64,000 bases of DNA. Source: Bacteroidales bacterium. GTDB lineage: Bacteria > Bacteroidota > Bacteroidia > Bacteroidales > UBA7960. A program made the translations under genes and the position numbers. The notes under the pieces are model-generated. The model was not told where the DNA came from. It saw only the letters and a program-made list of their open reading frames with translations, and made no database searches. Shown in pieces: positions 12,474-60,882 of the stretch (position 1 is its first letter; the number at the start of each line of letters is the position of its first letter). Location: NCBI GenBank assembly GCA_041687035.1, contig JAWLCS010000008.1, positions 12,605 through 76,604 of the forward strand. The letters run 5' to 3'.

Positions 12474-12626
12474 GTGTAAAACTCTTTTTGTACTTGAGAA
12501 ATTGTAACTCAAATTTAGTTGTTTCTATTTATTTTGGCTTTTTTATGGGTAATTATGTTACACCTCTGTCTATAGATTAGAATAAAATATTGGAAAACAT
12601 TTTTTAAATCAAGGATTTTATTATCT

Positions 12627-46194: not shown

Positions 46195-46665
46195 ATGAGT
46201 AGAATTGAAGAATTCGTAAAAGAGCAGGCCGATATTCACGGCCGCGAGCGCAACAGCCTTATGCCCATATTGCAGGCTGTAGTGCAGTCGGAGCGTTTTC
46301 TTTCGGAAGATGCCATGGTAGCCATTGCTACCGAGCTCGATCTGAGCACTGCCGATGTGTTTGGCACTGCTTCTTTTTACACTTTTCTCGACACGGTTCC
46401 GCGGGGAAAGAACATTATTCGGGTTTGCAAAACCATTACCTGCCACATGAAGGGCAAAGACGCCATTATTGCCACGCTTGAGGATATGCTCAAGGTGAAA
46501 CTGGGTGAAACCACCTCTGATGGCAAATTTAGCTTGCTGCAAGCCAACTGCCTAGGCTGGTGCCACAAAGGGCCGGTAATGCTGGTAAATGATGAGGTTT
46601 ATCCCGAAATTACCCCCGAAAAAGCCGTGGAAGTCGTTCGTGAGTACCTGAAAAAAACCAAGTAA
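46195..46665 (+). CDS. hydC: NuoE-like thioredoxin-fold [2Fe-2S] subunit of hydrogenase locus 1
   Basis: 156 aa. The Cys pattern CKTITC ... CLGWC and the flanking ASFYTF, GKFSL and GPVMLVND motifs are typical of the NuoE/HydC 24-kDa family. Confidence 0.85.
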   Translation: MSRIEEFVKEQADIHGRERNSLMPILQAVVQSERFLSEDAMVAIATELDLSTADVFGTASFYTFLDTVPRGKNIIRVCKTITCHMKGKDAIIATLEDMLKVKLGETTSDGKFSLLQANCLGWCHKGPVMLVNDEVYPEITPEKAVEVVREYLKKTK

Positions 46666-46718
46666 GATGGCGGCAAGAAGGTGTATTATTTTCAAACCTA
46701 AAAGAAAAACAACCGATT

Positions 46719-47876
46719 ATGGAAAATAAAATAAAAAAAGTAGACCTCATATTCGAAAAAGTTGACCATTTGGCCATTCTTGACAAGTCGTTCAAGCGCA
46801 CCAGCGACGAGATCATTCTCGATGTGATCGATTCGGGCCTCAGGGGCAGGGGAGGCGCAGGCTTTCCAACCGGTCTGAAGTGGAAATTTGCCAAAAATGA
46901 GGAAGCTGATCAGAAGTATGTGATTTGCAATGCCGACGAAGGTGAGCCTGGTACATTCAAAGACCGCGAGATCCTTACCAACGTGCCCGAAAAGGTGCTG
47001 TCAGGCATGGCGCTTTGCGGCAAGGCCATTGGTGCCACCGAAGGTTATATTTACCTCAGGGCCGAGTATAACTTCCTGCTGCCCATGCTTCACGAAAAGA
47101 TGAAAGAATTTAACAAGCAGATGAAGGAACACAATTTCGAATTTACCGTATTTGTTCGTTCGGGCAGTGGCGCTTACGTTTGCGGCGAAGAAACCGCACT
47201 GATGGAATCGATGGAAGGTCACCGCGGAGAACCCCGCAATAAGCCCCCGTTCCCCACGCAGCATGGCTACCTGGGCAAGCCCACTTCCATAAACAACGTG
47301 GAAACCCTGGTGTTTGCGCTGATGATTGCCAATCACGGTCCAAAGATGTTCAAAGAGCTGGGTACCTTCGACTCAAGGGGCTCAAAAGTATTCTCCATTT
47401 CGGGCGATACTCCCAAGGCTGGAATTTACGAGCTTGAACTTGGTATGAGCCTCGAAGATTTTGTAAATGAGTTTGGCGATGGCGACACCAAAGCCGTTCA
47501 GGTGGGTGGTGCCTCCGGATTCTGCGTAGCCCGCAAACACTTTAAGGAAACCCTCATTGGATTTGAAGGAATTCCCACAGGGGGCTCCATGATGCTGTTT
47601 AACAGCTCGCGCTCCATGTTTAATATCCTGCATGATTATCTGGAGTTTTTTGAAGAAGAGTCTTGCGGCCAGTGTAGCCCTTGCCGGATTGGTTGCCAGC
47701 AGCTCCTTAAAGGAATTGAAGCAGTGAAGAAAGGGACCAAATCACCATTATATCTGAATGAACTGCAGAAACTGTCGGAAACCATGAAGATTGCCTCCAA
47801 ATGCGGTCTCGGACAGTCTGTAGGAAACCCCTTCAACTCAATTATCAATAACTTCCGTGAAGAGATCATTTACTAG
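46719..47876 (+). CDS. hydB: Short NuoF-like flavoprotein subunit of hydrogenase locus 1 (FMN/NADH core and one 4Fe-4S site only)
   Basis: 385 aa. Motifs are GLRGRGGAGFPTGLKWKF, CNADEGEPGTFKDR, YVCGEETALMESMEG and ESCGQCSPCR...KCGLGQS. The protein ends right after this cluster site. It has neither the N-terminal 2Fe-2S domain nor the C-terminal 2x[4Fe-4S] ferredoxin domain seen in the 597-aa paralogue at 55457. Confidence 0.85.
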   Translation: MENKIKKVDLIFEKVDHLAILDKSFKRTSDEIILDVIDSGLRGRGGAGFPTGLKWKFAKNEEADQKYVICNADEGEPGTFKDREILTNVPEKVLSGMALCGKAIGATEGYIYLRAEYNFLLPMLHEKMKEFNKQMKEHNFEFTVFVRSGSGAYVCGEETALMESMEGHRGEPRNKPPFPTQHGYLGKPTSINNVETLVFALMIANHGPKMFKELGTFDSRGSKVFSISGDTPKAGIYELELGMSLEDFVNEFGDGDTKAVQVGGASGFCVARKHFKETLIGFEGIPTGGSMMLFNSSRSMFNILHDYLEFFEEESCGQCSPCRIGCQQLLKGIEAVKKGTKSPLYLNELQKLSETMKIASKCGLGQSVGNPFNSIINNFREEIIY

Positions 47877-47913
47877 ACGGATGCAGTTTTAATTTAAAAC
47901 AGGAGAAAAGACA

Positions 47914-49704
47914 ATGAGTAAATATAAAGTTAATCTGAAGATCAATAATATCCCTGTTTCGGTTGATGAGGGTACCACCATTCTGGAGGCCGCTCGCAAA
48001 CTGAACTTCAACATTCCGACCCTATGTCACCACGACGACCTTTGCGTGGCAGGCAACTGCCGGGTTTGTGTGGTTGAACAAAAGGGAGCCCGCCTGCTGC
48101 CCGCATCTTGTGCCACTCCAGTGAGCGAAGGCATGGAAATTTTAACCAACAGCATGAAGGTGCGCCAAGCCCGCAAGCATATTGTTGAGCTCTTGCTTAC
48201 CGAACACAATGCCGATTGTACCAAGTGCTTTAAAAATGGCCATTGTGAGCTCCAGGAAATTTCAAATGAATACCGTATTGGCGACCATGTGTTTATCGAC
48301 CTGGTGAAAGAAAAGGACAAGGTGCAGGATATCTCCAGTCCGGCCATTGCCAAGGACGACAGCAAGTGTATCCGCTGCCAGCGTTGTGTGCGCACCTGTT
48401 CACAGCTGCAGCATGTGAGCGCACTTGCCGTTACCCACAAGGGCAACGAGATGCGTATTTCTACCTTCCTCGATAAGCCAATGAACGATGTGGTTTGCAC
48501 CAACTGCGGTCAGTGCATCAACCGCTGCCCCACAGCAGCCCTTACCGAGCGCAGCTACATCGACCAGGTGTTTGACGTGATTTACGATCCCAATAAATTC
48601 GTGGTGGTGCAGACAGCCCCAGCTACCCGCGTGGCCATTGGCGAAGAGTTTGGCCTGGAGCCCGGCACCCGCGTGACCGGAAAAATGGTGGCCGCTTTGC
48701 GCAGGCTGGGATTCGACAAGGTGCTCGACACCGACTTTACCGCCGACCTAACCATCGTGGAAGAAGGCAACGAGCTGCTTCGTCGCCTAAAGGAAGCCTT
48801 GGTGGATGGTAAAGATGTGGCCCTGCCTATGATGACCAGTTGCTCACCTGGCTGGATCAAATTCCAGGAGCACCTCTATCCCGAATTCCTAGATAACCTT
48901 TCTACTTGCAAGTCGCCCCAGCAAATGTTTGGCCCCCTGGCAAAGACTTATTATGCTGAAAAGGTGAACAAGAATCCCGCCGATATGGTGGTAGTATCAA
49001 TTATGCCTTGTACCGCCAAGAAGTTTGAGGCCGAGCGCCCCGAAATGCGCGGAAGCGGCTATAAAGATGTAGACTTTGTACTGACTACCCGCGAGCTGGG
49101 TATGATGATCCGTCAGGCTGGTATTGACTTCAATAAGCTCGACAACGAAGGCTATGATAGCATCCTGGGCGAGTCGACCGGTGCGGCTGTGATTTTCGGA
49201 GCCACAGGTGGTGTAATGGAAGCGGCCCTGCGTTCGGCTTACGAGATCGTTACTGGTCGCGAAGTGCCCTTCAGCAACCTCAACATTAAGCCTGTTAGGG
49301 GTATGGAAGGCGTGAAGGAAGCTGCCGTGAAAATCAAGGATGTTTTGCCCGAGTGGAAATTCCTTGAAGGCGTTGAGTTAAGGGTGGCTATAGCCCACGG
49401 CCTTGCCAATGCCAAGATACTGATGGACCGCGTGAAGGACGGCACCGCCAATTTCCACTTCATTGAAGTGATGGCTTGCCCCAGCGGATGTATCGGTGGC
49501 GGCGGTCAGCCCATACCAACCAACATGGAGATCCGCAAAAAGCGTGCTGCAGGTATTTACGACGAGGATGAGCACATGGTCATTCGCAAGTCGCACGAAA
49601 ACCCCGAGGTTACGGAGCTTTACCAAAAGTTCCTGCACGAACCGCTGGGACATCGCTCGCACGATTTATTGCACACGCACTACTATCCGCGTAAGAGGCA
49701 TTAA
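47914..49704 (+). CDS. hydA: [FeFe]-hydrogenase catalytic subunit, locus 1 (multidomain, group A3-like architecture)
   Basis: 596 aa. The N-terminus has a 2Fe-2S domain, a His-ligated cluster (EHNADCTKCFKNGHC) and two ferredoxin motifs (CIRCQRCVRTC, CTNCGQCINRCP). H-cluster motifs are L1 TSCSPGW (atypical), L2 MPCTAKKFE and L3 EVMACPSGCIGGGGQP. It has a small-subunit-like C-terminal tail. Confidence 0.9.
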   Translation: MSKYKVNLKINNIPVSVDEGTTILEAARKLNFNIPTLCHHDDLCVAGNCRVCVVEQKGARLLPASCATPVSEGMEILTNSMKVRQARKHIVELLLTEHNADCTKCFKNGHCELQEISNEYRIGDHVFIDLVKEKDKVQDISSPAIAKDDSKCIRCQRCVRTCSQLQHVSALAVTHKGNEMRISTFLDKPMNDVVCTNCGQCINRCPTAALTERSYIDQVFDVIYDPNKFVVVQTAPATRVAIGEEFGLEPGTRVTGKMVAALRRLGFDKVLDTDFTADLTIVEEGNELLRRLKEALVDGKDVALPMMTSCSPGWIKFQEHLYPEFLDNLSTCKSPQQMFGPLAKTYYAEKVNKNPADMVVVSIMPCTAKKFEAERPEMRGSGYKDVDFVLTTRELGMMIRQAGIDFNKLDNEGYDSILGESTGAAVIFGATGGVMEAALRSAYEIVTGREVPFSNLNIKPVRGMEGVKEAAVKIKDVLPEWKFLEGVELRVAIAHGLANAKILMDRVKDGTANFHFIEVMACPSGCIGGGGQPIPTNMEIRKKRAAGIYDEDEHMVIRKSHENPEVTELYQKFLHEPLGHRSHDLLHTHYYPRKRH

Positions 49705-50202: not shown

Positions 50203-50856
50203 ATGAAGCTCCCGAACAACAACATGCAAAAGGCCGATGGGCAGGCAGTGCCAGAGCCCACACTGAGGCGTTTACCTGGTTATCTCAGTTACTTCAAGTC
50301 GCTCAAGATCAATAATATTGAGTTTGTGTCGAGCAGTCAGATCGCGGCCACTTTTAATATGGATGCCACCCTGGTTACCAAGGACCTCTCTTATACGGGT
50401 GTGAAGGGTCGCACAAAAATTGGCTACAGTGTGGATAAGCTCATTGAAAACATTGTGGTATTCCTTGATTTTAACACCCAGGAAAACGCTTTTCTGTTTG
50501 GAGTAGGTAACCTTGGCAAGGCGCTCATTAACTATGATGGGCTGAAGCAATATGGGTTGAAAATTGTGGCTGGGTTCGATATAAATCCCACCATTATTGG
50601 CTCACAGGTTAAAGAAGTGAAGATATTTGGGGTAGACGATTTCCGTGATCTGTCGCGTAAAACGCCTGCCCGCATTGGCATTATCACTACCCCTGATCAT
50701 CGCGCCCAGGAAACCGCTGACCTTATGGTGGCTTGGGGCATTAAAGCCATATGGAACTTTACCCCCCAGTCTATAAAAGTACCCGAAAATATTATCGTGG
50801 AAAACACAAGTATTTACTCCGATCTGGCGGTCATTTTAAATAAGCTGAACCGATAG
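50203..50856 (+). CDS. rex: Redox-sensing transcriptional repressor Rex
   Basis: 217 aa. It has an N-terminal winged helix (TLRRLPGYLSYFKSL...VSSSQIA) and a Rossmann NAD(H) site (LFGVGNLGKALINY). It lies between the two hydrogenase loci. Confidence 0.9.
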   Translation: MKLPNNNMQKADGQAVPEPTLRRLPGYLSYFKSLKINNIEFVSSSQIAATFNMDATLVTKDLSYTGVKGRTKIGYSVDKLIENIVVFLDFNTQENAFLFGVGNLGKALINYDGLKQYGLKIVAGFDINPTIIGSQVKEVKIFGVDDFRDLSRKTPARIGIITTPDHRAQETADLMVAWGIKAIWNFTPQSIKVPENIIVENTSIYSDLAVILNKLNR

Positions 50857-51026: not shown

Positions 51027-51044
51027 ATGTGAAAAAATTAACAA
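51027..51044. promoter_or_regulatory. Candidate Rex operator upstream of the sensory cassette and hydrogenase locus 2
   Basis: ATGTGAA-AAAA-TTAACAA compared with the Rex operator consensus TTGTGAA-N4-TTCACAA has two mismatches. It sits just upstream of a TTTG (51050-51053) and a TAATTTTG (51074-51081) promoter pair. Confidence 0.45.
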
Positions 51045-51073
51045 CTTTCTTTGGTTTTTGACTATTAAGTAGT

Positions 51074-51081
51074 TAATTTTG
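51074..51081 (+). promoter_or_regulatory. Candidate Bacteroidota -7 promoter box for the cassette/hydrogenase-2 operon
   Basis: TAATTTTG matches TAnnTTTG. A TTTG lies 20 nt upstream. The box is about 100 nt before the first start codon. Confidence 0.4.
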
Positions 51082-51180
51082 CAGTGGTTTTTGATAGTGC
51101 CCTGAAATGCAAAGTTTTGCACGCTAGCTTCGGGCAGGCAGGGCACCTGAAATCTGGCGAGATTTAATCAAGAAAACAGA

Positions 51181-51525
51181 ATGAAGGTAGCGGATATAGT
51201 TAAATTGGTTGACGGTAAGTTGATTTGCGGCGTGGACCGACTCGATTACACCATCGAGGTGGCTTTTGCTTCCGATCTTATGAGCGATGTGCTCACGCTA
51301 AAAAATGATCATGTATTGCTCATTACCGGGCTCAACAATATGCAAATCATCCGTACTGCTGAGATGTCCGATATTAATTGTATTATCCTTGCCCGCAACA
51401 AAAAAGCAAGCGAGGAGATGCTTGAGCTGGCGCGCGAAAATGAGTTGATCATTATTGAGTGCCGTTATTCTGTTTTCAAAACCTGCGGTCTACTTTTCGA
51501 AGCCGGCGTAAAACCGATCTTTTAA
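51181..51525 (+). CDS. DRTGG-domain protein (first copy)
   Basis: 114 aa. The pattern LLITGLNNMQIIRTAEMSDINCIILARNKKASEEMLELARENELIIIE is consistent with the DRTGG fold. The family call is from memory of similar hydrogenase-linked genes. Confidence 0.6.
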   Translation: MKVADIVKLVDGKLICGVDRLDYTIEVAFASDLMSDVLTLKNDHVLLITGLNNMQIIRTAEMSDINCIILARNKKASEEMLELARENELIIIECRYSVFKTCGLLFEAGVKPIF

Positions 51526-51528
51526 ATA

Positions 51529-51963
51529 ATGAGCCACGATTCGCATACCATGCATTTTGAGTTTAATGTAGAGGGTGGAAACTTTACTCGTGCCGGTTAT
51601 GCCTCGAGCGAGATAAAGAAGATCCTGAAGCAACTTAACGTGGATATGGCAATCGTTAAGCGCACCGTGGTGGCCTGTTATGAAGCCGAAGTCAATGTGG
51701 TGGCTCATGCATACAGTGGCACCATTTACGTCGATGTCAGCACCGAATCCATCACCATAAAATTGGTTGACGAAGGCCCTGGCATTGCTGATATTGACCT
51801 GGCCATGCAGGAAGGTTATTCCACGGCCAGCAGCAAGGTGCGCGAAATGGGCTTTGGTGCCGGAATGGGCTTGCCCAATATTAAGAAGAATGCCGACAAA
51901 CTGGAGATATCCAGCCAGGTAAATAAAGGAACAACACTCGAAATAACCATGTTTTTTAATTAG
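51529..51963 (+). CDS. Small HATPase_c protein, RsbW/SpoIIAB-like serine kinase (anti-sigma-factor-like)
   Basis: 144 aa. N-box-like ACYEAEVNVVAHA and G-boxes DEGPGIADID and GFGAGMGLPNI. There is no sensor or DHp domain. Confidence 0.7.
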   Translation: MSHDSHTMHFEFNVEGGNFTRAGYASSEIKKILKQLNVDMAIVKRTVVACYEAEVNVVAHAYSGTIYVDVSTESITIKLVDEGPGIADIDLAMQEGYSTASSKVREMGFGAGMGLPNIKKNADKLEISSQVNKGTTLEITMFFN

Positions 51964-51968
51964 AACCC

Positions 51969-53342
51969 ATGGCAGTAAAGTACTTCCATCACGCACTTAA
52001 ATTCCGCAAGGAGGTCTGCATAGGCTGCTCCCATTGCATGAATGTGTGTCCTACCGAGGCCATTCGCATTCATGGGGGCAAAGCCGAACTGACCGACAAC
52101 CGATGCGTGGATTGCGGGAAGTGCTACATGGCCTGCCCGGTGGGTGCCATAATTGTGGAGCAGGACGACTTCAGCCGTATTTTCGAGTTTGAGCACCGCG
52201 TGGCCCTTATTCCCAATGTGTTGCTGGGCCAGTTTCCTGAAAAGGTTTCAATTAATCAGATTTGCAGCGTTTTGCATGAACTTGGCTTCACCCATATTTT
52301 TGAAGTGGAGCATGGCACCCGTATTCTGCAGGGCGCCATGGAAGAGTATATGCAACAGTACCCCGAAAAAAAGCCGCTTATATCCACTTTCTGCCCGGCA
52401 ATTGTGCGATTGATCCAGGTACAATTTCCGGCCATGACCGAAAACCTCATGCTGCTTAAAGCTCCGCTTGATATCGCAGCAACGTACTTCCGCAAAAAAT
52501 TGATTGACCAGGGTGCCAAAGCCGATGAGATCGGAATTTTTTACATTACGCCCTGCGCCGCCAAAATTGCGGCCGTAAAAAGCCCCGTAGGTGATGAAAC
52601 GTCGGACATTACTGGAGTGATCAACATGGACTTTATTTTTAATAAGGTATATACCAGTGTGAAGCAGGGCCATTTGGGCAAAACCACCTGTCAGGTACCT
52701 TCACTTTCGGCCCTCGAGCCGCAGGAGATGCTATGGAGTCTTACCGAGGGCGAATCCTCACGGATGCCCGGACGGGCGCTGGCCATTGACGAAATCAGCA
52801 ATGTTATTGAGTTTCTGGAGCGCCTCGAAAACGAAGAGAACCGCGACATTGATTTTCTGGAACTCAGGGCTTGCGACCAGAGCTGTGCCGGCGGTATTCT
52901 TACCAGTGGCAACCGGTTCTTTACTGTAGAGCGTTTGAGGAAACGCGCAGAAGAGGCCAGCAGCGAGCAGCCAGGAGAAGGACTGAAGCAGGAAGCTGCC
53001 TCCATGATGCAGTACCGCGATTTCCTTATTGAAAATATTGGCGTGAAAAAGGTGTTGCCCCGGTCAATGGACAAGCTCGATGACGATACCAAACGCGCCT
53101 TGCTCAAGATGCAAATGGTGCGTGAAATCATGAAGTCGTTGCCTTATGTAGACTGCGGCCTTTGTGGTTCGCCCACCTGCAACGCCCTGGCACAGGACAT
53201 TGCGCAGGGGCGCGCCGAGATCACCCATTGCATCTTCGTCCAAAAGAAATACGAACAAAAGGAATGGCTCAGCCACAACGAAAGCATGGAAATCATGAAG
53301 GAGATTTGGGGCGACGATAAGTTTGGCGAACAGAAAAACTAA
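51969..53342 (+). CDS. Sensory-type [FeFe]-hydrogenase-like Fe-S protein (2x[4Fe-4S] ferredoxin, degenerate H-domain, C-terminal Cx2Cx4Cx16C domain)
   Basis: 457 aa. Ferredoxin motifs are CIGCSHCMNVCP and CVDCGKCYMACP. H-domain-like motifs are STFCPAIV (vs TSCCPxW), ITPCAAKIAA (vs MPCxxKxxE) and ELRACDQSCAGG (vs ExMACxxGCxxGGGQP). The C-terminal CGLCGSPTCNALAQDIAQGRAEITHC resembles the RnfB-type 4Fe-4S domain. Confidence 0.75.
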   Translation: MAVKYFHHALKFRKEVCIGCSHCMNVCPTEAIRIHGGKAELTDNRCVDCGKCYMACPVGAIIVEQDDFSRIFEFEHRVALIPNVLLGQFPEKVSINQICSVLHELGFTHIFEVEHGTRILQGAMEEYMQQYPEKKPLISTFCPAIVRLIQVQFPAMTENLMLLKAPLDIAATYFRKKLIDQGAKADEIGIFYITPCAAKIAAVKSPVGDETSDITGVINMDFIFNKVYTSVKQGHLGKTTCQVPSLSALEPQEMLWSLTEGESSRMPGRALAIDEISNVIEFLERLENEENRDIDFLELRACDQSCAGGILTSGNRFFTVERLRKRAEEASSEQPGEGLKQEAASMMQYRDFLIENIGVKKVLPRSMDKLDDDTKRALLKMQMVREIMKSLPYVDCGLCGSPTCNALAQDIAQGRAEITHCIFVQKKYEQKEWLSHNESMEIMKEIWGDDKFGEQKN

Positions 53343-53354
53343 AGATATTACACC

Positions 53355-53690
53355 ATGACGGTAGCAGAAGTAGCAGAAAAGCTTGGATTGAAAGTGTACA
53401 GCGGAAAGAACGGACTGAACCGTAAGGTTACAGGCGGTTATGTGTCCGATCTGCTGAGCGACGTAATGGGCAATGCCGATGCAGGCGAGATTTGGATCAC
53501 CCTGCAAACGCATAAGAATGTGATGGCCATTGCCTCTTTGAAAGATTTAGCAGCCATTATCCTGGTTTCGGACCATAAGCCCGAGCAGGATACGGCCATT
53601 CAGAGCAATGAGGAGGAGATACCGATTCTGGGTACCAGCCTCCCCACCTTTGAAATCAGCGGAAAGCTCTTTGAATTATTGAAAAAATGA
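53355..53690 (+). CDS. DRTGG-domain protein (second copy)
   Basis: 111 aa. Its N-terminal half is clearly paralogous to the first copy (GYVSDLLSDVMGNA vs AFASDLMSDVLTLK). It overlaps the next gene by 4 nt (ATGA). Confidence 0.6.
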   Translation: MTVAEVAEKLGLKVYSGKNGLNRKVTGGYVSDLLSDVMGNADAGEIWITLQTHKNVMAIASLKDLAAIILVSDHKPEQDTAIQSNEEEIPILGTSLPTFEISGKLFELLKK

Positions 53691-54433
53691 ACTCGTTCAG
53701 GGCCGATTTGCATGTGCACACCGTGTTGTCGCCCTGCGGCGACCTGGAGATGAGTCCTGCTGCGATTGTGGATGCGGCTGCCCGCCGTGGGATAGATATC
53801 CTGGGCATTACCGACCACAACAGCACCAAACACGGGCCATTGGTAAGCAAACTGGCTCAGAAAAAGGGAATATTCGTTTTGTGTGGTGCAGAAGTCACCA
53901 CCCGCGAAGAAGCCCACTGCTTAGCGTTCTTTGAAAATTTTGAAATACTGGCTGCCTTTCAGCAATACCTCGACAGCCACTTGCCCAACATCAAGAATGA
54001 CCCACGGTATTTTGGATACCAGGTGGTGCTTGATGAGGAGGAGATGATAGTTGAGGAAGAAGAAAGGCTGCTGATATCGGGTCTTGATCAGACGCTCGAC
54101 CAGATAGAGGAGGAGGTGCACCGCCTGGGCGGGCTGTTCATTCCGGCGCACATCGACCGGCCAAAATACAGCCTCACCAGCCAGCTGGGCTTTGTGCCAC
54201 CGGGCATCAAGGCCGATGCGCTGGAAATTTCGCGCTTCACCACACCGGAGAAAATTGCGGAACAGTTCCCGTGGATCGCCTCCTACACCTTTATCAGAAG
54301 CTCGGATGCACACCACCCCGACGCCATCGGATCTGGCATTACCATTTTTGAAATGGAGCGCCGCAGCTTCGATGAGATTCGCAAGGCTTTGCACCGTACC
54401 GATAACCGTAGCACACGCATTGAAAGGGAATAA
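53687..54433 (+). CDS. PHP-domain metal-dependent phosphoesterase
   Basis: 248 aa. PHP motifs are ADLHVHTVLSPCGD, GITDHNS, AEV, IPAHIDRP and SSDAHH. Confidence 0.8.
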   Translation: MNSFRADLHVHTVLSPCGDLEMSPAAIVDAAARRGIDILGITDHNSTKHGPLVSKLAQKKGIFVLCGAEVTTREEAHCLAFFENFEILAAFQQYLDSHLPNIKNDPRYFGYQVVLDEEEMIVEEEERLLISGLDQTLDQIEEEVHRLGGLFIPAHIDRPKYSLTSQLGFVPPGIKADALEISRFTTPEKIAEQFPWIASYTFIRSSDAHHPDAIGSGITIFEMERRSFDEIRKALHRTDNRSTRIERE

Positions 54434-54436
54434 AGC

Positions 54437-54982
54437 ATGAAAGACCTGTCGTTGCACATACTCGATATCGCCCAGAACAGCATCAGCGCTGCTGCCAGCA
54501 ATATAGGCATAAGCATTGATGAAAACCTGGCCGCCAACACCATGGCGATTGAGGTGACTGACAACGGCTGCGGAATGTCTGCCGAGGTGCTGGAAAGGGT
54601 AACCGATCCTTATTTTACCTCGCGTACCACCCGCAAAGTTGGCCTGGGAATTCCGCTCTTTAAGCAGAATGCGGAGGCCACGGGAGGAAGTTTGCAGATT
54701 GACTCGGAAGAGGGCAGGGGCACCATGCTGAAGGCCACTTTTGTGCACAACCACCTCGATCGCCCGCCTTTGGGCGACATGGCAGGGGTAATGGTGCTGC
54801 TGGCAGGTGCCAACCCGGAGATCAGGTTTGTGTACACACACCGGGTTGATAATGAAGAATACGTGTTCGACACGGAAGAAGTGAAGGAAGCGCTGGATGG
54901 CCTTCCGATAAACGATCCGCAGGTGATGCGGTTTTTGAAGGAAATGATTATTGAAAACCTTGTGGCCATTAAGGCCAAATAG
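54437..54982 (+). CDS. Stand-alone HATPase_c (GHKL ATPase/kinase-like) protein
   Basis: 181 aa. N-box LHILDIAQNSISA and G1/G2 VTDNGCGMSAE and TTRKVGLGIPLFKQ. It has no DHp or receiver domain. Confidence 0.7.
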   Translation: MKDLSLHILDIAQNSISAAASNIGISIDENLAANTMAIEVTDNGCGMSAEVLERVTDPYFTSRTTRKVGLGIPLFKQNAEATGGSLQIDSEEGRGTMLKATFVHNHLDRPPLGDMAGVMVLLAGANPEIRFVYTHRVDNEEYVFDTEEVKEALDGLPINDPQVMRFLKEMIIENLVAIKAK

Positions 54983-55042
54983 TATTGAAACCAAGTTAAA
55001 AACAAAATACTTTTTCAACATTAATTAATGGGAGATTAACAA

Positions 55043-55435
55043 ATGACGAAAATTAAATCACTGGCTGATTTGAGAAATATGAAGGCCGACCTTCAGTCGA
55101 AAATCGCCTTAAGAGAAAAAAGCGACAGCCCTGAAGGCCGCGTGCAGATCAAGGTGGCAATGGCTACCTGTGGCATTGCGTCGGGTGCCAAGGACGTAAT
55201 GGAATTCCTGGTGGAAGAGCTCGATAAGCGCAACATTGACGCTATTGTATCGCAAACCGGCTGCATGGGTTATTGCTATGCCGAACCCACCATTGAGGTG
55301 ACCCTGCCCAACCAGGAACCCGTGGTTTTCGGTTACGTTGACAGCAAGAAAGCCGACGATATTATTGAAAAATACATTAAAACCGGCGAATTGCTCGAGG
55401 GTATCATTCCGGTGAATTACGAAAAAATTGACTAA
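55043..55435 (+). CDS. Thioredoxin-like [2Fe-2S] ferredoxin-domain protein
   Basis: 130 aa. VAMATCGIASGAKDV ... QTGCMGYCYAEPT is the pattern of the small ferredoxin-like proteins found in multimeric [FeFe]-hydrogenase operons. Confidence 0.75.
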   Translation: MTKIKSLADLRNMKADLQSKIALREKSDSPEGRVQIKVAMATCGIASGAKDVMEFLVEELDKRNIDAIVSQTGCMGYCYAEPTIEVTLPNQEPVVFGYVDSKKADDIIEKYIKTGELLEGIIPVNYEKID

Positions 55436-55456: not shown

Positions 55457-57250
55457 ATGGCAAAATTCAAAACGCATATGCTGGTTTGTGGTGGCACGGG
55501 TTGCCGTGCTTCGGCCAGTGACGTGCTTTATGAGAATTTGAAGAAGGAAGTCAAGGAGAAGGGCCTTGAAAACGATGTGCAGGTGGTAACCACCGGTTGC
55601 TTTGGTTTCTGCGAGCAGGGTCCCATCGTGAAAATGATTCCCGACAATACCTTCTATGTTGGCGTGCAGCCCAAAGATGCCGCCGATATTGTAGCCGAGC
55701 ATGCCATCAAGGGCCGCAAGGTAGATCGCCTGCTCTACAAAGACCCGGTGAAGAAAGAACATGTTCCCGATTCGAAGCATATGGGCTTTTACAAAAAGCA
55801 GATTCGAATTGCACTGCGTAACTGCGGTCTGATTGACCCCGAAAATATTAATGAGTACCTGGCTGCCGATGGTTATGAGGCCCTTGGCAAGGTACTGCTA
55901 GAGATGACCCCCGAAGAGGCCATCAAAGAAGTAATCGACTCTGGCCTTCGCGGCCGCGGAGGCGGTGGTTTCCCAACGGGTGTGAAGTGGCAGATTGCAC
56001 TTAACGTAAAAGGCGACCAGAAGTATGTGGTATGTAATGCCGACGAGGGTGACCCCGGTGCCTTTATGGACCGCTCCATCCTCGAGGGCGACCCCCACAG
56101 TGTGCTCGAAGCCATGGCCATAAACGGCTATTGCATTGGCGCAACCAAAGGTCTTATTTATATCCGTGCAGAATATCCCCTGGCCATCAGCCGCCTGAAG
56201 ATTGCCATTGCTCAGGCCCGCGAATATGGCCTGCTGGGCGAAGACATTCTGGGCAGCGGATTCAACTTCGACATTGAAATGCGCTATGGCGCAGGAGCTT
56301 TTGTGTGCGGCGAAGAAACCGCCCTGATCCACTCCATGGAAGGCGAAAGGGGAGAACCTACCTTCAAGCCCCCCTTCCCGGCACAAAGCGGTTACCTTGG
56401 CAAGCCCACCAACGTGAACAACGTGGAGACTTATGCCAACATCCCGGTTATTATCAATAAAGGCGCCAAGTGGTTTTCAGCCATCGGTACCGAGAAGTCA
56501 AAAGGTACCAAGGTTTTTGCCCTTGCGGGAAAAATCAACAACGTAGGTCTGATTGAAGTGCCTATGGGTATTACCCTGCGCGAAGTGATCTTTGAGATCG
56601 GTGGCGGCATCAAAGGCGGCAAGAAGTTCAAGGCCGTTCAGACCGGTGGCCCCTCGGGTGGCTGTCTCACCGAGAAGCACCTCGACACCCCCATCGACTA
56701 TGATAACCTGATTGCCTCAGGCTCCATGATGGGCTCAGGGGGTATGATTGTTATGGACGAAGACGACTGCATGGTATCCGTAGCCAAGTTCTACCTCGAA
56801 TTTACCGTGGAAGAAAGTTGTGGAAAGTGCTCGCCCTGCCGTATCGGAAACAAACGCCTGTATGAGATTCTCGAGAAAATCACCAAAGGCAACGGTACCA
56901 TGGAAGACCTTGACAAGCTGCGCAACCTCAGCAATGTGATTAAGGACACTTCCCTTTGCGGGCTGGGACAAACCTCACCCAATCCGGTTCTTTCAACCCT
57001 CGATAACTTCTATGATGAATATCTTGCACACGTAACCGAAGGAAAATGCTTCGCCAGTCAGTGTAAAGACCTCATCAAGTACGAGATCATACCCGAAAAC
57101 TGCGTCGGCTGTACTGCCTGTGCGCGCAACTGCCCCGTAAACTGTATCGCTGGCGAAAGAAAACAGATTCACCTGATCGACCAGTCGCTCTGTATCAAGT
57201 GTGGTGCTTGTATGGAAAAATGTAAGTTTAATGCAGTAACAATCATTTAA
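55457..57250 (+). CDS. hydB: Full-length NuoF-like HydB subunit (N-terminal 2Fe-2S, FMN/NADH core, C-terminal 2x[4Fe-4S])
   Basis: 597 aa. Motifs are VCGGTGCRAS...GCFGFCEQGP, GLRGRGGGGFPTGVKW, CNADEGDPGAFMDR, ESCGKCSPCR, and the C-terminal CVGCTACARNCP and CIKCGACMEKC. Confidence 0.92.
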   Translation: MAKFKTHMLVCGGTGCRASASDVLYENLKKEVKEKGLENDVQVVTTGCFGFCEQGPIVKMIPDNTFYVGVQPKDAADIVAEHAIKGRKVDRLLYKDPVKKEHVPDSKHMGFYKKQIRIALRNCGLIDPENINEYLAADGYEALGKVLLEMTPEEAIKEVIDSGLRGRGGGGFPTGVKWQIALNVKGDQKYVVCNADEGDPGAFMDRSILEGDPHSVLEAMAINGYCIGATKGLIYIRAEYPLAISRLKIAIAQAREYGLLGEDILGSGFNFDIEMRYGAGAFVCGEETALIHSMEGERGEPTFKPPFPAQSGYLGKPTNVNNVETYANIPVIINKGAKWFSAIGTEKSKGTKVFALAGKINNVGLIEVPMGITLREVIFEIGGGIKGGKKFKAVQTGGPSGGCLTEKHLDTPIDYDNLIASGSMMGSGGMIVMDEDDCMVSVAKFYLEFTVEESCGKCSPCRIGNKRLYEILEKITKGNGTMEDLDKLRNLSNVIKDTSLCGLGQTSPNPVLSTLDNFYDEYLAHVTEGKCFASQCKDLIKYEIIPENCVGCTACARNCPVNCIAGERKQIHLIDQSLCIKCGACMEKCKFNAVTII

Positions 57251-57267: not shown

Positions 57268-59040
57268 ATGGAACTTATTAAATTAACCATAGATAACAGA
57301 CCTGTCGAGGTTGAAAAGGGTACCACCGTTTTCCATGCCGCCAAAAAGCTGGGCATCGAGATCCCCACGCTGTGCTACATGAACCTCGCTGATTTGAACA
57401 TCGAGCACAAGCCCGGCGGCTGCCGTGTTTGTGTGGTAGAAGTGGAAGGCCGCCGCAACCTGGCACCTTCCTGCGCTACCGAATGTAATGAAGGTATGGT
57501 GGTGAAGACCAATAGTATGCGCGTGTTAAACTCACGCCGTACCGTGCTGGAACTGATCCTCTCAGACCACCCGTTCGACTGCCTCATTTGCGCCAAGAGT
57601 GGCCATTGCGATTTGCAGAACATGGCCATTAAGATGGGTGTTCGCAGCATTCCTTACCAGGGCGAGAAATCGACTTACAAGCCTGACTTTTCACCTGCCA
57701 TTATCCGCGAAATGGACAAGTGCATCATGTGCCGCCGCTGTGAAACCATGTGCAACGACTTCCAGACCGTGGGTGTGCTCTCGGGCATTAATCGTGGCTT
57801 CGAAGCAGTGGTGGCCCCCGCTTTCGAACGCGACCTCGACCACAGCGAATGTACCTATTGCGGACAGTGCGTGGCGGTTTGCCCCACCGGCGCCCTCACC
57901 GAGGTGGATCACACCCCGCAGGTAATCCGCGCCCTGGCCGATCCGGCAAAGACCGTTGTCGTTCAGACTGCCCCTGCCGTTAGAGCTGCCCTGGGCGAAG
58001 AGTTTGGCCTGGAGCCAGGCACCCTCGTAACCGGAAAACTGGCTGCCGCATTGCGCCGCCTCGGGTTCGACTATGTGTTCGATACCGACTTTGCTGCCGA
58101 CCTTACCATTATGGAAGAAGGCTCAGAGCTGCTCGACCGCCTCGGCCGTTTCCTCAGTGGCGACAAGAACGTGAAGCTGCCTATGCTTACCTCATGCTGC
58201 CCCGGCTGGGTCAACTTCTTCGAGTATAACTTCCCCGACATGCTCGACGTGCCCTCTACCGCACGCTCGCCCCAGCAAATGTTCGGTTCAATAGCAAAAT
58301 CATACTTTGCCGATAAGATCAAGACCGATCGTAAAGACATGGTGGTTGTTTCCATTATGCCTTGCGTGGCCAAGAAGTACGAAGCCACCCGCGAAGAGTT
58401 TAAGGTGGACGGCAACCCAGATGTGGACTTCTCCATCTCGACCCGCGAGCTGGCAGCGCTTATCAAAGGCGCCAACATCGATTTCAACAGCCTGCCCGAC
58501 GAAGACTTCGATAAGCCCCTGGGCGAATCGACCGGTGCAGGTGTTATCTTTGGTGTTACCGGTGGTGTAATTGAAGCCGCCGTGCGTACAGCCTACGAAT
58601 TGCACACCAAGAAAACCCTCGAAAAGGTCGACTTCAAGCAGCTGCGTGGCCTCGAAGGCATTCGCTCAGCAAGTGTCGACTTCGACGGTGTGGAAATTAA
58701 GATTGGTATTGCACACGGACTGGGCAACGCCCGCAAACTGCTCGAAGACATCAAGGCTGGCAAGAGCGAGTTCCATGCCATTGAGATCATGGCTTGCCCC
58801 AGCGGGTGTATCGGTGGTGGCGGTCAGCCCCTGCACCATGGCGACTCGTCCATCCTCAAAGCCCGTCATAAGGCCATTTACACCGAAGACGAGAAGAAGG
58901 TGCTGCGCAAGAGCCACGAAAACCCATACATCATTAAGTTGTATGACGAATTCCTTGGCAAGCCCATGAGCGAAAAAGCGCATCATTTGCTGCATACCCA
59001 CTACTTTGCCAAGAAAACCAGGCATATCGACATTGACTAA
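57268..59040 (+). CDS. hydA: [FeFe]-hydrogenase catalytic subunit HydA, locus 2 (canonical group A3-like)
   Basis: 590 aa. The N-terminal Fe-S domains include DHPFDCLICAKSGHC, CIMCRRCETMC and CTYCGQCVAVCP. The H-cluster motifs are canonical: TSCCPGW, MPCVAKKYE and EIMACPSGCIGGGGQP. Confidence 0.93.
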   Translation: MELIKLTIDNRPVEVEKGTTVFHAAKKLGIEIPTLCYMNLADLNIEHKPGGCRVCVVEVEGRRNLAPSCATECNEGMVVKTNSMRVLNSRRTVLELILSDHPFDCLICAKSGHCDLQNMAIKMGVRSIPYQGEKSTYKPDFSPAIIREMDKCIMCRRCETMCNDFQTVGVLSGINRGFEAVVAPAFERDLDHSECTYCGQCVAVCPTGALTEVDHTPQVIRALADPAKTVVVQTAPAVRAALGEEFGLEPGTLVTGKLAAALRRLGFDYVFDTDFAADLTIMEEGSELLDRLGRFLSGDKNVKLPMLTSCCPGWVNFFEYNFPDMLDVPSTARSPQQMFGSIAKSYFADKIKTDRKDMVVVSIMPCVAKKYEATREEFKVDGNPDVDFSISTRELAALIKGANIDFNSLPDEDFDKPLGESTGAGVIFGVTGGVIEAAVRTAYELHTKKTLEKVDFKQLRGLEGIRSASVDFDGVEIKIGIAHGLGNARKLLEDIKAGKSEFHAIEIMACPSGCIGGGGQPLHHGDSSILKARHKAIYTEDEKKVLRKSHENPYIIKLYDEFLGKPMSEKAHHLLHTHYFAKKTRHIDID

Positions 59041-59090: not shown

Positions 59091-59579
59091 ATGACTTCCG
59101 TAAAATTAAAACTCAAAGAAAACGATGTGCAAAAGATCCGCGAGATCTGCAAGTCGTTCAACAACGAACCCGGTGAGCTGATCAATGTGTTGCATAAGAC
59201 GCAGGAATTTTTTGGCTACCTTCCAGCCGAAGTGCAGGAAGAAGTGGCTGAAGGCTTAAATGTGTCTGTAGCCAAAGTGTACGGTGTGGTGACCTTTTAC
59301 TCATTCTTCACCATGCTGCCCAAGGGCCGCTACCCCATCAGCGTTTGTACGGGTACTGCCTGCTATGTGCGTGGCGCCGAAAAGGTGCTTGACGAGTTCA
59401 AGCGCATACTGAAAGTTGCCGTGGGCGAAACCACGCCCGATGGCAAATTCTCCATCACCTGCCTGCGCTGCGTTGGCGCCTGTGGTTTGGCCCCCGTGGT
59501 TATGGTGGGCGACAAGACCTATGGCCGCGTTACCACCGACGGGGTGAAGGACATCCTGAAAGAATATGAGAACGAGTAA
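59091..59579 (+). CDS. hydC: NuoE-like [2Fe-2S] HydC subunit, locus 2
   Basis: 162 aa. Motifs are VTFYSFF, VCTGTACYVRGA, GKFSITCLRCVGACGLAPVVMV. The gene is followed by a strong intrinsic terminator. Confidence 0.9.
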   Translation: MTSVKLKLKENDVQKIREICKSFNNEPGELINVLHKTQEFFGYLPAEVQEEVAEGLNVSVAKVYGVVTFYSFFTMLPKGRYPISVCTGTACYVRGAEKVLDEFKRILKVAVGETTPDGKFSITCLRCVGACGLAPVVMVGDKTYGRVTTDGVKDILKEYENE

Positions 59580-59640: not shown

Positions 59641-59682
59641 ATTTGGGGAAGCTTGCAGGCTTATTTGCCTGGTTTCAATTAA

Positions 59683-60882
59683 TTAATTTACAGCCTTTAA
59701 ACCCTGGTAATAGTCGTCAAGGATTTTTGTAACCATGGGCCTGTAAAAAAGACGAAAAAAGCTTCTTCGCTCCTGCATAACCTGCGTATACATCAGGTAA
59801 TCCAACTTTTCAATGTGTTTGAGCTTTGCGTTTTTCAATGAGATCGGATTATCGGCAAAGTCGCCGGCAAAATAAAAGTAAAGGTCGTTGTGCTTGCTTT
59901 TTATTACCGCCGGAAACACGGTGGGAATATTCCAATGATCAAGAATGGAGTCGCCTTCCAGGTTTGGCTCTAACCTGTATTCTGCCAGCACCTCATTAGA
60001 GTCACCGGCAGTGCATATGTCGAACCAATAGGGATACTTAATTTTCTTGATAACCCCATAATGATCAACCAGTTTTCCATCTGAATAAATATATGGCACT
60101 TCAACATCCAGGTGTGTCTCATTTTCAAGAACAACAATCATGTCATCATTTCTCACAAAAGCAATTCCTGATTTTGTAAATGGCCATTCATTGTTGTTTT
60201 GTTTCATGTAATTTCTGACAAGCCATTGGGGGATTTCCGTGCTTAAAAGGGTGTCGAGGGTGCTGAAATAACGGCCGGTCCAGTTTTTCCAGGTAATATC
60301 AAATTCTTCTTCGTATTCTTTTCTTATGCCAAACGAAGTTGGCGACCCAATTATGTTAAACTCATTAATGATCAACTTATTACGACTTTTCATCAACCTC
60401 AGAAATGCCAATTCGTTTTTAGCAAGGCCTCCGTATATCCATTCCGATCTTTCACCCATTCTGCCTGGGTCTTGCTCTGGTTTTACATGCGGGTATTCAT
60501 TGTGCCATTCTATCCAGTAAACACCATACAAGTCGGTATAATAAACCATATCATACGCATCGGCAAGTGCTTCCAGCTCTTCCGGGGTTTTACCTTCAAT
60601 GTCGTTGATGGTGTAATTTCCGTTGCCATCGGGAAAAAAGCCAAAATAATCCCTTTCCGGTAAATAAAATTCTTCGTTCGATTTAACGTACTTCTTGTTT
60701 TTCAGCACCCAGTTAAAGGACAAATGTTCCTGGTAGTTTTTATTCAGCACTGTTTTGTCAAGTATAAAAACTTCCATTGGTTTTTTTTCAGCCATTTGCC
60801 AGGATATGCGCATAAAAACAGGTATGCCAATTAATACCCCCAGCAAAAAAACAATAAAAATGATAAAAACAATTCTTGCCAT
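59683..60882 (-). CDS. Hypothetical membrane-anchored protein
   Basis: 399 aa with an N-terminal TM helix (IVFIIFIVFLLGVLIGIPVF). The rest is soluble and rich in Tyr, Trp, Asn and Glu. I recognise no domain. Confidence 0.55.
   Translation of the reverse strand: MARIVFIIFIVFLLGVLIGIPVFMRISWQMAEKKPMEVFILDKTVLNKNYQEHLSFNWVLKNKKYVKSNEEFYLPERDYFGFFPDGNGNYTINDIEGKTPEELEALADAYDMVYYTDLYGVYWIEWHNEYPHVKPEQDPGRMGERSEWIYGGLAKNELAFLRLMKSRNKLIINEFNIIGSPTSFGIRKEYEEEFDITWKNWTGRYFSTLDTLLSTEIPQWLVRNYMKQNNNEWPFTKSGIAFVRNDDMIVVLENETHLDVEVPYIYSDGKLVDHYGVIKKIKYPYWFDICTAGDSNEVLAEYRLEPNLEGDSILDHWNIPTVFPAVIKSKHNDLYFYFAGDFADNPISLKNAKLKHIEKLDYLMYTQVMQERRSFFRLFYRPMVTKILDDYYQGLKAVN

Follow-up and report, generated by a model that had tools for sequence, protein, structure and literature searches.

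A conserved gene cassette around a putative group D sensory [FeFe]-hydrogenase leads into a bifurcating-type hydrogenase operon in a Bacteroidales genome

Here we describe a gene cassette that centres on a putative sensory [FeFe]-hydrogenase in a metagenome-assembled genome (MAG) of a Bacteroidales bacterium (GenBank GCA_041687035.1). The stretch analysed, hereafter the window, is 64,000 nucleotides (nt) long and covers positions 12,605 to 76,604 of contig JAWLCS010000008.1. The cassette comprises seven open reading frames (ORFs), g1 to g7, which all lie on the forward strand between positions 51181 and 55435 and lead into the hydrogenase genes hydB, hydA and hydC. An earlier interpretation made without database searches (the sequence-only reading) saw here a seven-gene H2- or redox-sensing cassette at the front of a hydrogenase operon, with no recognisable output. 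We argue that the products of g1 to g4 form one physical complex, and we speculate that this complex may control the hydrogenase encoded beside it in response to H2.

The ORF coordinates agree exactly with the arrangement first described, in which seven co-directional genes, separated by 3, 5, 12, -4, 3 and 60 nt, run into hydB after a further 21 nt. The first gene, g1 (51181..51525), encodes a DRTGG protein of 114 amino acids (aa), here called Da, which matches PF07085 at 38.6 bits (gathering cut-off 25.2). It is followed by g2 (51529..51963), encoding Ka, a 144-aa SpoIIAB/RsbW-like Ser/Thr kinase of the GHKL type (HATPase_c_2, 42 bits), and by g3 (51969..53342), encoding the 457-aa sensor candidate HydS, in which Pfam recognises two Fer4 motifs, Fe_hyd_lg_C (77.6 bits) and FeS (PF04060, 42 bits). 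The product of g4 (53355..53690), the 111-aa protein Db, scores just below the PF07085 cut-off at 23.7 bits. We nevertheless treat it as a DRTGG paralogue, because it aligns with g1 from end to end (26% identity, BLASTP E 8e-13). The stop codon of g4 and the start of g5 share 4 nt. A 248-aa PHP-family metal-dependent phosphoesterase is encoded by g5 (53687..54433; PHP 38.8 bits, PHP_C 28.7 bits), and a stand-alone 181-aa GHKL ATPase, Kb, by g6 (54437..54982; HATPase_c, 56.4 bits). The last gene, g7 (55043..55435), encodes a small thioredoxin-like protein of 130 aa that is probably a HydD subunit (2Fe-2S_thioredx, 26.6 bits, cut-off 24.8). With g4 admitted through its paralogy to g1, Pfam and NCBIfam searches support the domain calls originally made for all seven proteins.

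The hydrogenase genes that follow are also on the forward strand. Here, hydB (55457..57250) encodes a NuoF-like FMN/NADH subunit with N-terminal 2Fe-2S and C-terminal 2x[4Fe-4S] domains, and hydC (59091..59579) a NuoE-like 2Fe-2S subunit (PF01257, 172 bits). Between them, hydA (57268..59040) encodes the catalytic [FeFe]-hydrogenase subunit, which carries the motifs TSCCPGW, MPCVAK and EIMACPSGCIGG and matches NF040763, the NCBIfam model for NADH-dependent [FeFe] hydrogenase of group A6, at 902.6 bits (cut-off 765). The full set of HydA H-cluster motifs, the HydB domain set and the NuoE-like HydC are the gene features of electron-bifurcating HydABC (group A3), and the enzyme is accordingly predicted to be of the electron-bifurcating type.

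The protein at the centre of the cassette, g3, is a group D (M2e) putative sensory [FeFe]-hydrogenase and a homologue of TamHydS from Thermoanaerobacter mathranii, an assignment that follows from its domains, its motif pattern, its lack of a PAS domain and its homology to TamHydS. In alignments (A3, A4), its N-terminal cysteines C17, C20, C23, C27, C46, C49, C52 and C56 are invariant or nearly so, and its H-cluster ligands C142, C196, C302 and C306 are invariant in 35 diverse representatives. The proton-relay cysteine (C299 of CpI) is replaced by Phe, giving STFCPA where the window's own HydA has TSCCPGW, and this position is never Cys in 35 representatives of the g3 family. The position equivalent to Met353, before the second ligand, is Thr (TPCAAK, against MPCVAK in HydA). 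The pattern also includes RACDQSC and a C-terminal Cx2Cx4Cx16C motif (CGLCGSPTC-x16-C, residues 396-421). Neither Pfam nor NCBIfam matched a PAS domain in g3, which stops about 36 residues past the C-terminal cluster motif. These features match those given for M2e/group D enzymes by Land et al. 2020 (PMC8163306), so that the likely H2- or redox-sensing metalloprotein of the sequence-only reading can be placed, by sequence, in a named class.

TamHydS itself shares with g3 the two N-terminal [4Fe-4S] motifs, the missing proton-relay cysteine, a hydroxyl residue in place of Met353, the Cx2Cx4Cx16C motif and the absence of a PAS domain. A tblastn comparison of g3 with the TamHydS coding sequence is colinear, with about 35% identity over 260 aa (E 4e-54) and 60% identity across the C-terminal cluster motif; these values are approximate, the TamHydS sequence having been taken from a supplement damaged by optical character recognition (PMC13104023). 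The two loci are also alike. The TamHydS gene adjoins a histidine-kinase-like ATPase gene and lies 5' of a trimeric bifurcating hydrogenase, just as g3 lies beside a kinase-like gene and 5' of the multimeric group A hydrogenase genes hydBAC (PMC8163306). Apart from the modest identity, the host differs, being here a Bacteroidales MAG. MAGs of Bacteroidales or Bacteroidota supply all of the closest homologues of g3. Group D enzymes were already on record from Bacteroidota, since Parabacteroides goldsteinii appears in a list of 70 of them (PMC13104023). TamHydS, described as the sole member of group D to have been characterised, catalyses turnover reversibly, at a low rate and with raised H2 affinity (PMC8163306). 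Its signalling partners were still reported as unknown in April 2026, in line with the earlier remark that the mechanism had not been worked out, and the same 2026 study terms finding the interaction partners of group D enzymes 'critical' (PMC13104023).

The downstream end of the cassette has a different affinity. In Acetobacterium woodii the operon order is hydC-hydE-hydD-hydB-hydA1, and its 'HydE' is a histidine-kinase-ATPase-like protein that is no component of the active enzyme and has been suggested for 'assembly or signalling' (PMC3315566). The native order in Caldanaerobacter subterraneus is hydC-tte0891-hydD-hydB-hydA (PMC4694547). In the Bacillota loci of our survey, the g6-type ATPase gene lies between hydC and hydD, in the same order as in these two species. 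Consequently, g6 is best equated with HydE/Tte0891 and g7 with HydD of the tetrameric enzymes, on the strength of position and published descriptions. As in A. woodii and Ca. subterraneus, the window thus has an ATPase gene and a small HydD gene within the structural operon, although here hydC stands at the end and g6 directly follows the PHP gene; the likeness is one of position and description. The g7-type gene is always immediately 5' of hydB, and g7 resembles the N-terminal thioredoxin-like domain of NuoF-type subunits (9n5u_B, E 7.6e-15). It keeps only three conserved cysteines (MATCGIASGA ... TGCMGYC), in a pattern that NfnB (9n5u_B) and related NuoF-like subunits also show in their N-terminal domains, and A. 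woodii HydD has been reported to lack a cofactor site. The active enzymes of both Ca. subterraneus and A. woodii were obtained as HydABCD. Of the seven genes first grouped as a sensing cassette, g6 and g7 fit better within the hydrogenase operon itself.

The arrangement is widespread. A scan of one genome per GTDB species, with an 11-sequence alignment (A4) as query, returned 80 loci, cited below by number (L001 and so on) where they need to be told apart. ORFs were called in these loci and labelled with hidden Markov models (HMMs) built from the window proteins; the paralogues HydS/HydA, HydB/HydC/Fdx and Da/Db were assigned by length and context, with context-defined subfamily HMMs. About 50 loci belong to Bacteroidota, about 23 to Bacillota, 5 to Spirochaetota, 2 to Muiribacteriota and 1 to Desulfobacterota (Desulfoluna). 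Loci of Bacteroidota, Bacillota and Muiribacteriota repeat the gene order and those of Spirochaetota and Desulfobacterota repeat part of it, which argues against a chance arrangement and bears out the synteny with hydrogenase genes that had been expected from the window. The commonest order is that of the window, namely DRTGG, kinase, HydS, DRTGG, PHP, ATPase, small Fdx, HydB, HydA and HydC, and is complete in 22 loci. The Bacillota order is identical except that hydC lies between the PHP gene and the second ATPase gene, and two Pfam-annotated Thermoanaerobacterales-type loci agree with it. In most loci, g1 to g6 are tightly spaced or overlapping, with looser junctions before g7 or, in Bacillota, before hydC. 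The window is an ordinary instance among many Bacteroidales genomes, and is nearly identical to a contig of MAG GCA_964489985.1 (L001). An apparent loss of g6 in that contig (L001:12524-12768) was rejected, as a run of N across the gene marks an assembly gap and left it uncalled.

Conservation is graded along the cassette. Presence was counted in 74 anchored loci, using for each component only loci with enough flanking sequence. The kinase gene lies directly 5' of HydS in 70/71 loci, and the first DRTGG gene is present in 65/69; these are followed by the second DRTGG gene and the PHP gene (59/71 and 59/68, respectively), the second ATPase gene (52/63) and HydB with HydA downstream (38/53, about 72%). 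In rounded terms, g1-g2-g3 are kept in 94-99% of loci, and g4, PHP and the second ATPase in about 85%. As presence falls from the core outward, the cassette resolves into a near-invariant core (g1-g2-g3), a usual module (g4-g5) and a hydrogenase-side module (g6-g7-hydBA(C)). In Rikenellaceae-type loci, the second ATPase gene is separated from the HydD-like gene by one for a Sir2-family NAD-dependent deacylase of 229-235 aa (L028:3257-3946, L030:12913-13620, L031:12946-13638).

Natural fusions point to physical association within the core. We surveyed the best 150 HydS cluster representatives at 50% identity, typed with the subfamily HMMs, and 10 of these are fusion proteins. In P0176 a g2-type kinase (HATPase_c_2) is joined N-terminally to HydS, in P0210 and P0220 a g1-type DRTGG domain occupies the same end, and in 7 representatives a g4-type DRTGG domain is joined C-terminally. 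Further, g1 and g2 occur as one polypeptide of about 270 aa in more than 120 clusters from Thermoanaerobacterales and relatives, under the database name 'anti-sigma regulatory factor / RsbT'. All of these fusions are colinear with the gene order, and none of those found involves PHP, g6 or g7. Given this Rosetta-stone evidence, we argue that g1, g2, g3 and g4 form one physical complex. The Thermoanaerobacterales-type loci differ from the window in other respects too: there the first DRTGG and kinase genes are fused, rex is translationally coupled and hydC precedes the second ATPase gene, whereas in the window the genes are separate and hydC comes last. An AF2 model of the DRTGG-kinase fusion has a pLDDT of 87.9 and a pTM of 0.77 despite a disordered 17-residue linker. 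Its kinase half superposes on SpoIIAB/RsbW (TM 0.85), and its DRTGG half matches the solved DRTGG domains 3l31, 2ioj and the HprK N-domain, although a sequence search of the PDB with g1 matched no solved structure.

The kinase g2 is nearest, among NCBIfam models, to the anti-sigma F factor SpoIIAB (TIGR01925, E 2.8e-17, 62.9 bits, equivalog cut-off 135), and it matches the SpoIIAB structure 1tid (E 8e-7). Catalytic motifs were checked in alignments of 53-69 orthologues per family. Orthologues of g2 keep the N-box Glu and Asn, DxGxG and GFGAGMGLPN; those of g6 keep the N box, DNGxGM, the RTTRKVGLG lid and a C-terminal HIDRxPLGD; and 61 orthologues of PHP keep all of its metal-ligand motifs (HxH, DHN, E, H, AH and DAH). 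The catalytic motifs of both ATPases and of PHP are hence conserved. Neither g2 nor g6 matches HisKA or Response_reg; both consist of the ATPase domain only, g6 has no phospho-acceptor His domain, and the pair lacks the domains of a two-component system. Both DRTGG families have an invariant SDL(M/L)SDV motif and a Thr at the 'TG' position (SDLMSDV and TGL in g1). DRTGG recurs as an accessory domain of phosphoryl-transfer enzymes, including HprK/P, CBS-pyrophosphatase and Pta. This recurrence, together with the fusions at both ends of HydS, suggests an adaptor role for the two DRTGG proteins. We found no literature linking DRTGG to hydrogenases.

The gene for Rex, an NADH/NAD+-sensing transcriptional repressor, lies just upstream of g1, as had been noted (50203..50856, forward strand; Put_DNA-bind_N and CoA_binding). 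Between rex and g1 lies a Rex-operator-like palindrome, ATGTGAAAAAATTAACAA (51027..51044), which of all sites in the window comes closest to TTGTGAA-N4-TTCACAA (2 mismatches) and is the sole exact match to TGTKAA-N4-TTMACA in the 64 kb. A site with one mismatch precedes rex itself. The Bacteroides promoter consensus is TTTG / TAnnTTTG, and a candidate promoter of this type can be read on the forward strand at 51050..51081, with TTTG at 51050-51053, a 20-nt spacer and TAATTTTG at 51074-51081; the operator ends 6 nt 5' of its TTTG. Exact operator matches occur 5' of the cassette in 8/70 upstream regions, against 0.29 expected, and matches with at most one mismatch in 13/70, against 0.77 expected. 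The rex gene adjoins the cassette in 8/80 other loci from both major phyla, and in Thermoanaerobacterales-type loci (L067, L082-L085) rex, at its stop, shares 4 nt with the start of the DRTGG-kinase gene. Rex is the experimentally established repressor of a bifurcating hydrogenase operon in Caldicellulosiruptor, where, as in the window, a Rex operator lies at the promoter and rex is nearby (PMC8579813). The window's operator is predicted from sequence, and the exact form is found at only about a tenth of cassette loci. From the operator in front of g1, the enrichment across loci and the Caldicellulosiruptor precedent, NADH-gated transcription of the whole operon through the predicted operator is well supported. 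The presumed 5' leader (51086-51185) contains a possible 8-bp stem (GTGCCCTG ... CAGGGCAC) around a smaller hairpin; it matches no Rfam family, and its folding energy is ordinary (z -1.58).

No conserved output partner could be recognised. As the sequence-only reading had it, the seven proteins contain no DNA-binding, receiver, STAS or sigma domain (Pfam, NCBIfam). We also ran Pfam scans on the 125 nearest upstream and 99 nearest downstream genes (224 in all) of the 80 loci, and found no STAS, sigma, receiver or DNA-binding/helix-turn-helix families within 10 kb. The commonest upstream families are SpoIIE (5/125), ThiF (4) and PAS (3), and the commonest downstream are TPR (4) and SIR2 (3). No unlabelled gene family occurs in more than 11 of the 80 loci, and those 11 represent one lineage. 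The earlier statement that the cassette lacks a recognisable output consequently stands across phyla; control of transcription is recognisable, in the Rex operator in front of g1. One candidate in the window was an AraC-type gene (AraC_binding and HTH_18; 61911-62741, reverse strand) 2.3 kb downstream, which we rejected as output since no helix-turn-helix family recurs downstream elsewhere. According to Land et al., TamHydS is flanked by an AraC-family gene (PMC8163306).

Some genomes carry further putative regulatory genes beside the cassette. In a Thermoanaerobacteraceae genome, hydA is directly followed by a gene for a protein of at least 826-875 aa (L083:17603-18810, L084:17750-18810) with Fer4, Fe_hyd_lg_C, FeS, PAS and sigma-54 activator AAA+ domains, which by its domains joins a transcription activator to a protein resembling sensory hydrogenases. 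Marinilabiliales-type genomes have, directly 5' of the cassette, genes for a group C HydS of 617-626 aa that bears a PAS domain and for a phosphatase of about 397 aa that is PP2C/SpoIIE-like (L013:178-3258, L020:5863-8899, L022:5787-8823), so that one hydrogenase operon is preceded by two different putative H2 sensors. The upstream genes in L026, L029 and L038-L041, on the opposite strand, encode a PP2C and, separately, a PAS protein. Group C (M2f) HydS proteins are known from T. maritima, R. albus and Thermoanaerobacterium (HfsB), and there is genetic evidence for a regulatory role of hfsB (PMC5707799). Like g3, they are hydrogenase-like sensors with an extra C-terminal cluster, and like the cassette they are associated with genes for kinases and phosphatases and with fermentative hydrogenases. 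They differ in having a PAS domain and PP2C phosphatases, where the cassette has no PAS domain but DRTGG proteins and a PHP phosphoesterase. Some Marinilabiliales thus hold group C and group D systems side by side.

We speculate that a HydS-centred complex of g1 to g4 senses H2, balances the kinase against the PHP enzyme and controls HydABCD post-translationally, with Rex setting transcription, and we would give this reading a probability of about 45%. According to this scheme, Rex would gate the ten-gene operon, and thereby tie it to the NADH/NAD+ ratio, through the operator beside the promoter. HydS would bind H2 at its H-cluster and so shift its conformation or redox state, while sitting in one complex with g1, g4 and the SpoIIAB-like kinase g2. 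The DRTGG proteins would serve as adaptor or regulatory modules, one tethering the kinase and the other, translationally coupled to g5, tethering PHP. H2 would then tip the scales between g2, through phosphorylation or partner binding that depends on ATP, and g5, through hydrolysis, in keeping with the 'write/erase pair' that the kinase and phosphoesterase might form, and g6, as a HydE-like ATPase travelling with hydC and hydD, may relay the signal. The output would be post-translational control of the co-encoded HydABCD, which appears the most likely target because no output partner is conserved nearby and the hydrogenase is the only constant neighbour. We infer the complex, the kinase and phosphatase activities and the target of the signal from our comparisons; that group D enzymes react with H2, and that Rex represses operons for bifurcating hydrogenases, is taken from the literature rather than from the window.

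Several observations weigh against such a scheme. [quoted passage not shown] No phospho-acceptor was identified in the cassette. The closest solved or curated relatives of PHP are nucleases and phosphodiesterases (EndoQ, TrlF, Ppl) rather than protein phosphatases, the nearest solved ones being EndoQ-type PHP domains (E 3.5e-6). The AF2 model of g6 is one compact domain (pLDDT 91.4, pTM 0.87) whose first 105 aa or so resemble histidine-kinase CA domains and BCKDK; over its full length the best matches are ATPase domains, those of MutL, PMS2, MLH1 and TopoVI-B, and the modelled protein may be an ATP-driven clamp rather than a kinase. Finally, Spirochaetota and a few Clostridia have only the DRTGG-kinase-HydS core, and hydABC is absent within 10 kb of it. 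As such stand-alone cores exist, adjacency does not make the hydrogenase a universal target. The Spirochaetota cores and the nuclease-like affinities of PHP are what the favoured model explains least well.

A bolder proposal, which we consider doubtful, is that the cassette represents a new phospho-signalling or partner-switching device, in which DRTGG replaces STAS, PHP replaces PP2C, H2 is the input and the bifurcating hydrogenase is switched directly after translation. It takes its lead from SpoIIAB-SpoIIAA-SpoIIE and RsbW-RsbV-RsbU, with which g2 shares sequence type, fold and catalytic residues, and in which a kinase is likewise paired with a phosphoesterase. The cassette differs in having no STAS antagonist, PP2C or sigma factor, and the fixed partners of its kinase are a DRTGG protein and HydS. 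The DRTGG proteins would then be the fixed partners of the SpoIIAB-like kinase and perhaps its phospho-acceptors. No literature linking partner switching to HydS was found. For the switching of the hydrogenase itself, the model would be PDK/BCKDK acting on dehydrogenase complexes: these are GHKL-fold Ser kinases that dock on a metabolic oxidoreductase complex and switch it off. The likeness is an analogy. The protein g6 aligns with the ATP-binding core of BCKDK (34-35% identity over about 83 residues) but is missing the N-terminal helical domain of PDK/BCKDK, and phosphorylation of a protein by g6 would be by analogy only.

The output might instead be transcriptional, through Rex. On this account g2, with g1, would bind or phosphorylate Rex in an H2-dependent manner and act as an anti-repressor, so that H2 and NADH signals converge on Rex operators of this and other operons. 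The position of rex directly 5' of the cassette here and beside it in two phyla, its translational overlap with the DRTGG-kinase gene, and the enrichment of operators are all consistent with this idea; SpoIIAB-type proteins classically bind a transcription factor, and the loci whose sensor core is not beside hydABC would be explained. However, about 90% of loci have no neighbouring rex, only 8/70 upstream regions have an exact operator, and the co-location is equally explained by plain Rex regulation as in Caldicellulosiruptor. To our knowledge there is no report of Rex being phosphorylated or sequestered, and we regard this route as unlikely.

More improbable is that no signalling takes place, and that the cassette encodes accessory or assembly factors, or a low-rate catalytic or electron-input module, its GHKL ATPases being clamps or chaperones and its PHP protein a housekeeping enzyme. 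Such a role would suit g6, which lies among structural genes, is MutL/TopoVI-B-like over its full length and belongs with a protein for which the literature allows 'assembly or signalling' (PMC3315566); the catalytically active and reversible TamHydS (PMC8163306) and the lack of an output domain point the same way. Yet g2 is specifically of the SpoIIAB/RsbW regulatory-kinase type, and the core occurs without nearby hydrogenase structural genes in Spirochaetota and some Clostridia. The active enzymes of Ca. subterraneus and A. woodii were obtained as HydABCD, and group D enzymes have no proton pathway and turn over slowly (PMC8163306).

Classical partner switching, with a STAS antagonist, sigma factor or other target elsewhere in the genome, would make g2 the kinase or anti-factor and leave HydS and the DRTGG proteins as input only. 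The SpoIIAB/RsbW-like sequence and fold of g2 agree with this, as does the presence, 5' of the cassette in some Marinilabiliales, of PP2C/SpoIIE, the usual phosphatase type, with a PAS-bearing group C HydS. Partner-switching genes are usually clustered, though, and STAS and sigma families are absent both from the seven proteins and from the 224 nearest neighbours, among which PP2C accounts for only 5 of the 125 upstream genes; we find such a distant target very improbable. We give least credence to a nucleotide messenger, in which PHP would break down a compound such as pAp, Ap4A or a cyclic nucleotide, with the DRTGG proteins as receptors for it: PHP's nearest relatives are phosphodiesterases and nucleases, the DRTGG fold matches 3l31, and the nucleotide-regulated inserts of CBS-pyrophosphatases contain DRTGG domains, but no cyclase or synthetase lies in or near the cassette, and this reading gives no function to two GHKL ATPases that are both conserved and catalytically intact.

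The surroundings of the operon contain several further features. A second trimeric [FeFe]-hydrogenase set lies on the forward strand at 46195-49704, just 5' of rex, and encodes a HydA of 596 aa along with two smaller proteins, one NuoE-like (156 aa) and the other NuoF-like but short (385 aa). This short NuoF-like protein lacks the N-terminal 2Fe-2S and C-terminal ferredoxin domains, and this shortened HydB is reminiscent of non-bifurcating NADH-dependent enzymes. The same second set is found 5' of the cassette in L002, L008, L009, L015, L016, L020 and L022. In the upstream HydA (47914-49704), the first H-cluster motif is TSCSPGW (region 48800-48830). We dropped the notion of an odd loss of a cluster ligand there, since this is a common variant (24/55 HydA sequences): TSCSPGW occurs in all cassette-linked HydA of Bacillota and Muiribacteriota, and TSCCP[GA]W in those of Bacteroidota (24 vs 31, n=55). 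Downstream, a consensus scan found a weak terminator-like hairpin after hydC (59656..59671, forward strand), with a 5-bp stem and a T-poor tail, which is no evidence of function. A 399-aa ORF directly 3' of hydC (59683-60882, reverse strand) has no Pfam match and is also called as a gene in the near-identical contig L001. Within the 3' part of g7 (55338-55365, forward strand), a sigma-70-like match (TTGACA, 16 nt, TATTAT; 11/12 positions) is probably due to chance, as the promoter consensus of Bacteroidota differs from that of sigma-70.

Of what is described here, the group D HydS locus, the HydE and HydD genes and Rex control have been described before. The searchable literature has nothing on what the DRTGG and PHP genes do, on a four-protein sensor core backed by fusions, on how conservation is graded between the modules or on the systematic lack of a classical output. 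For anaerobic fermenters, the partial pressure of H2 decides between H2 and reduced organic products as the outlet for electrons, which bears on H2 and methane flux in the gut and rumen and on yields of biofuel. The cassette names candidate partners for HydS, namely two DRTGG proteins and a SpoIIAB-like kinase, which occur fused to HydS or to each other, along with a PHP enzyme and a HydE-like ATPase. This comparative evidence makes the question of group D signalling directly testable.

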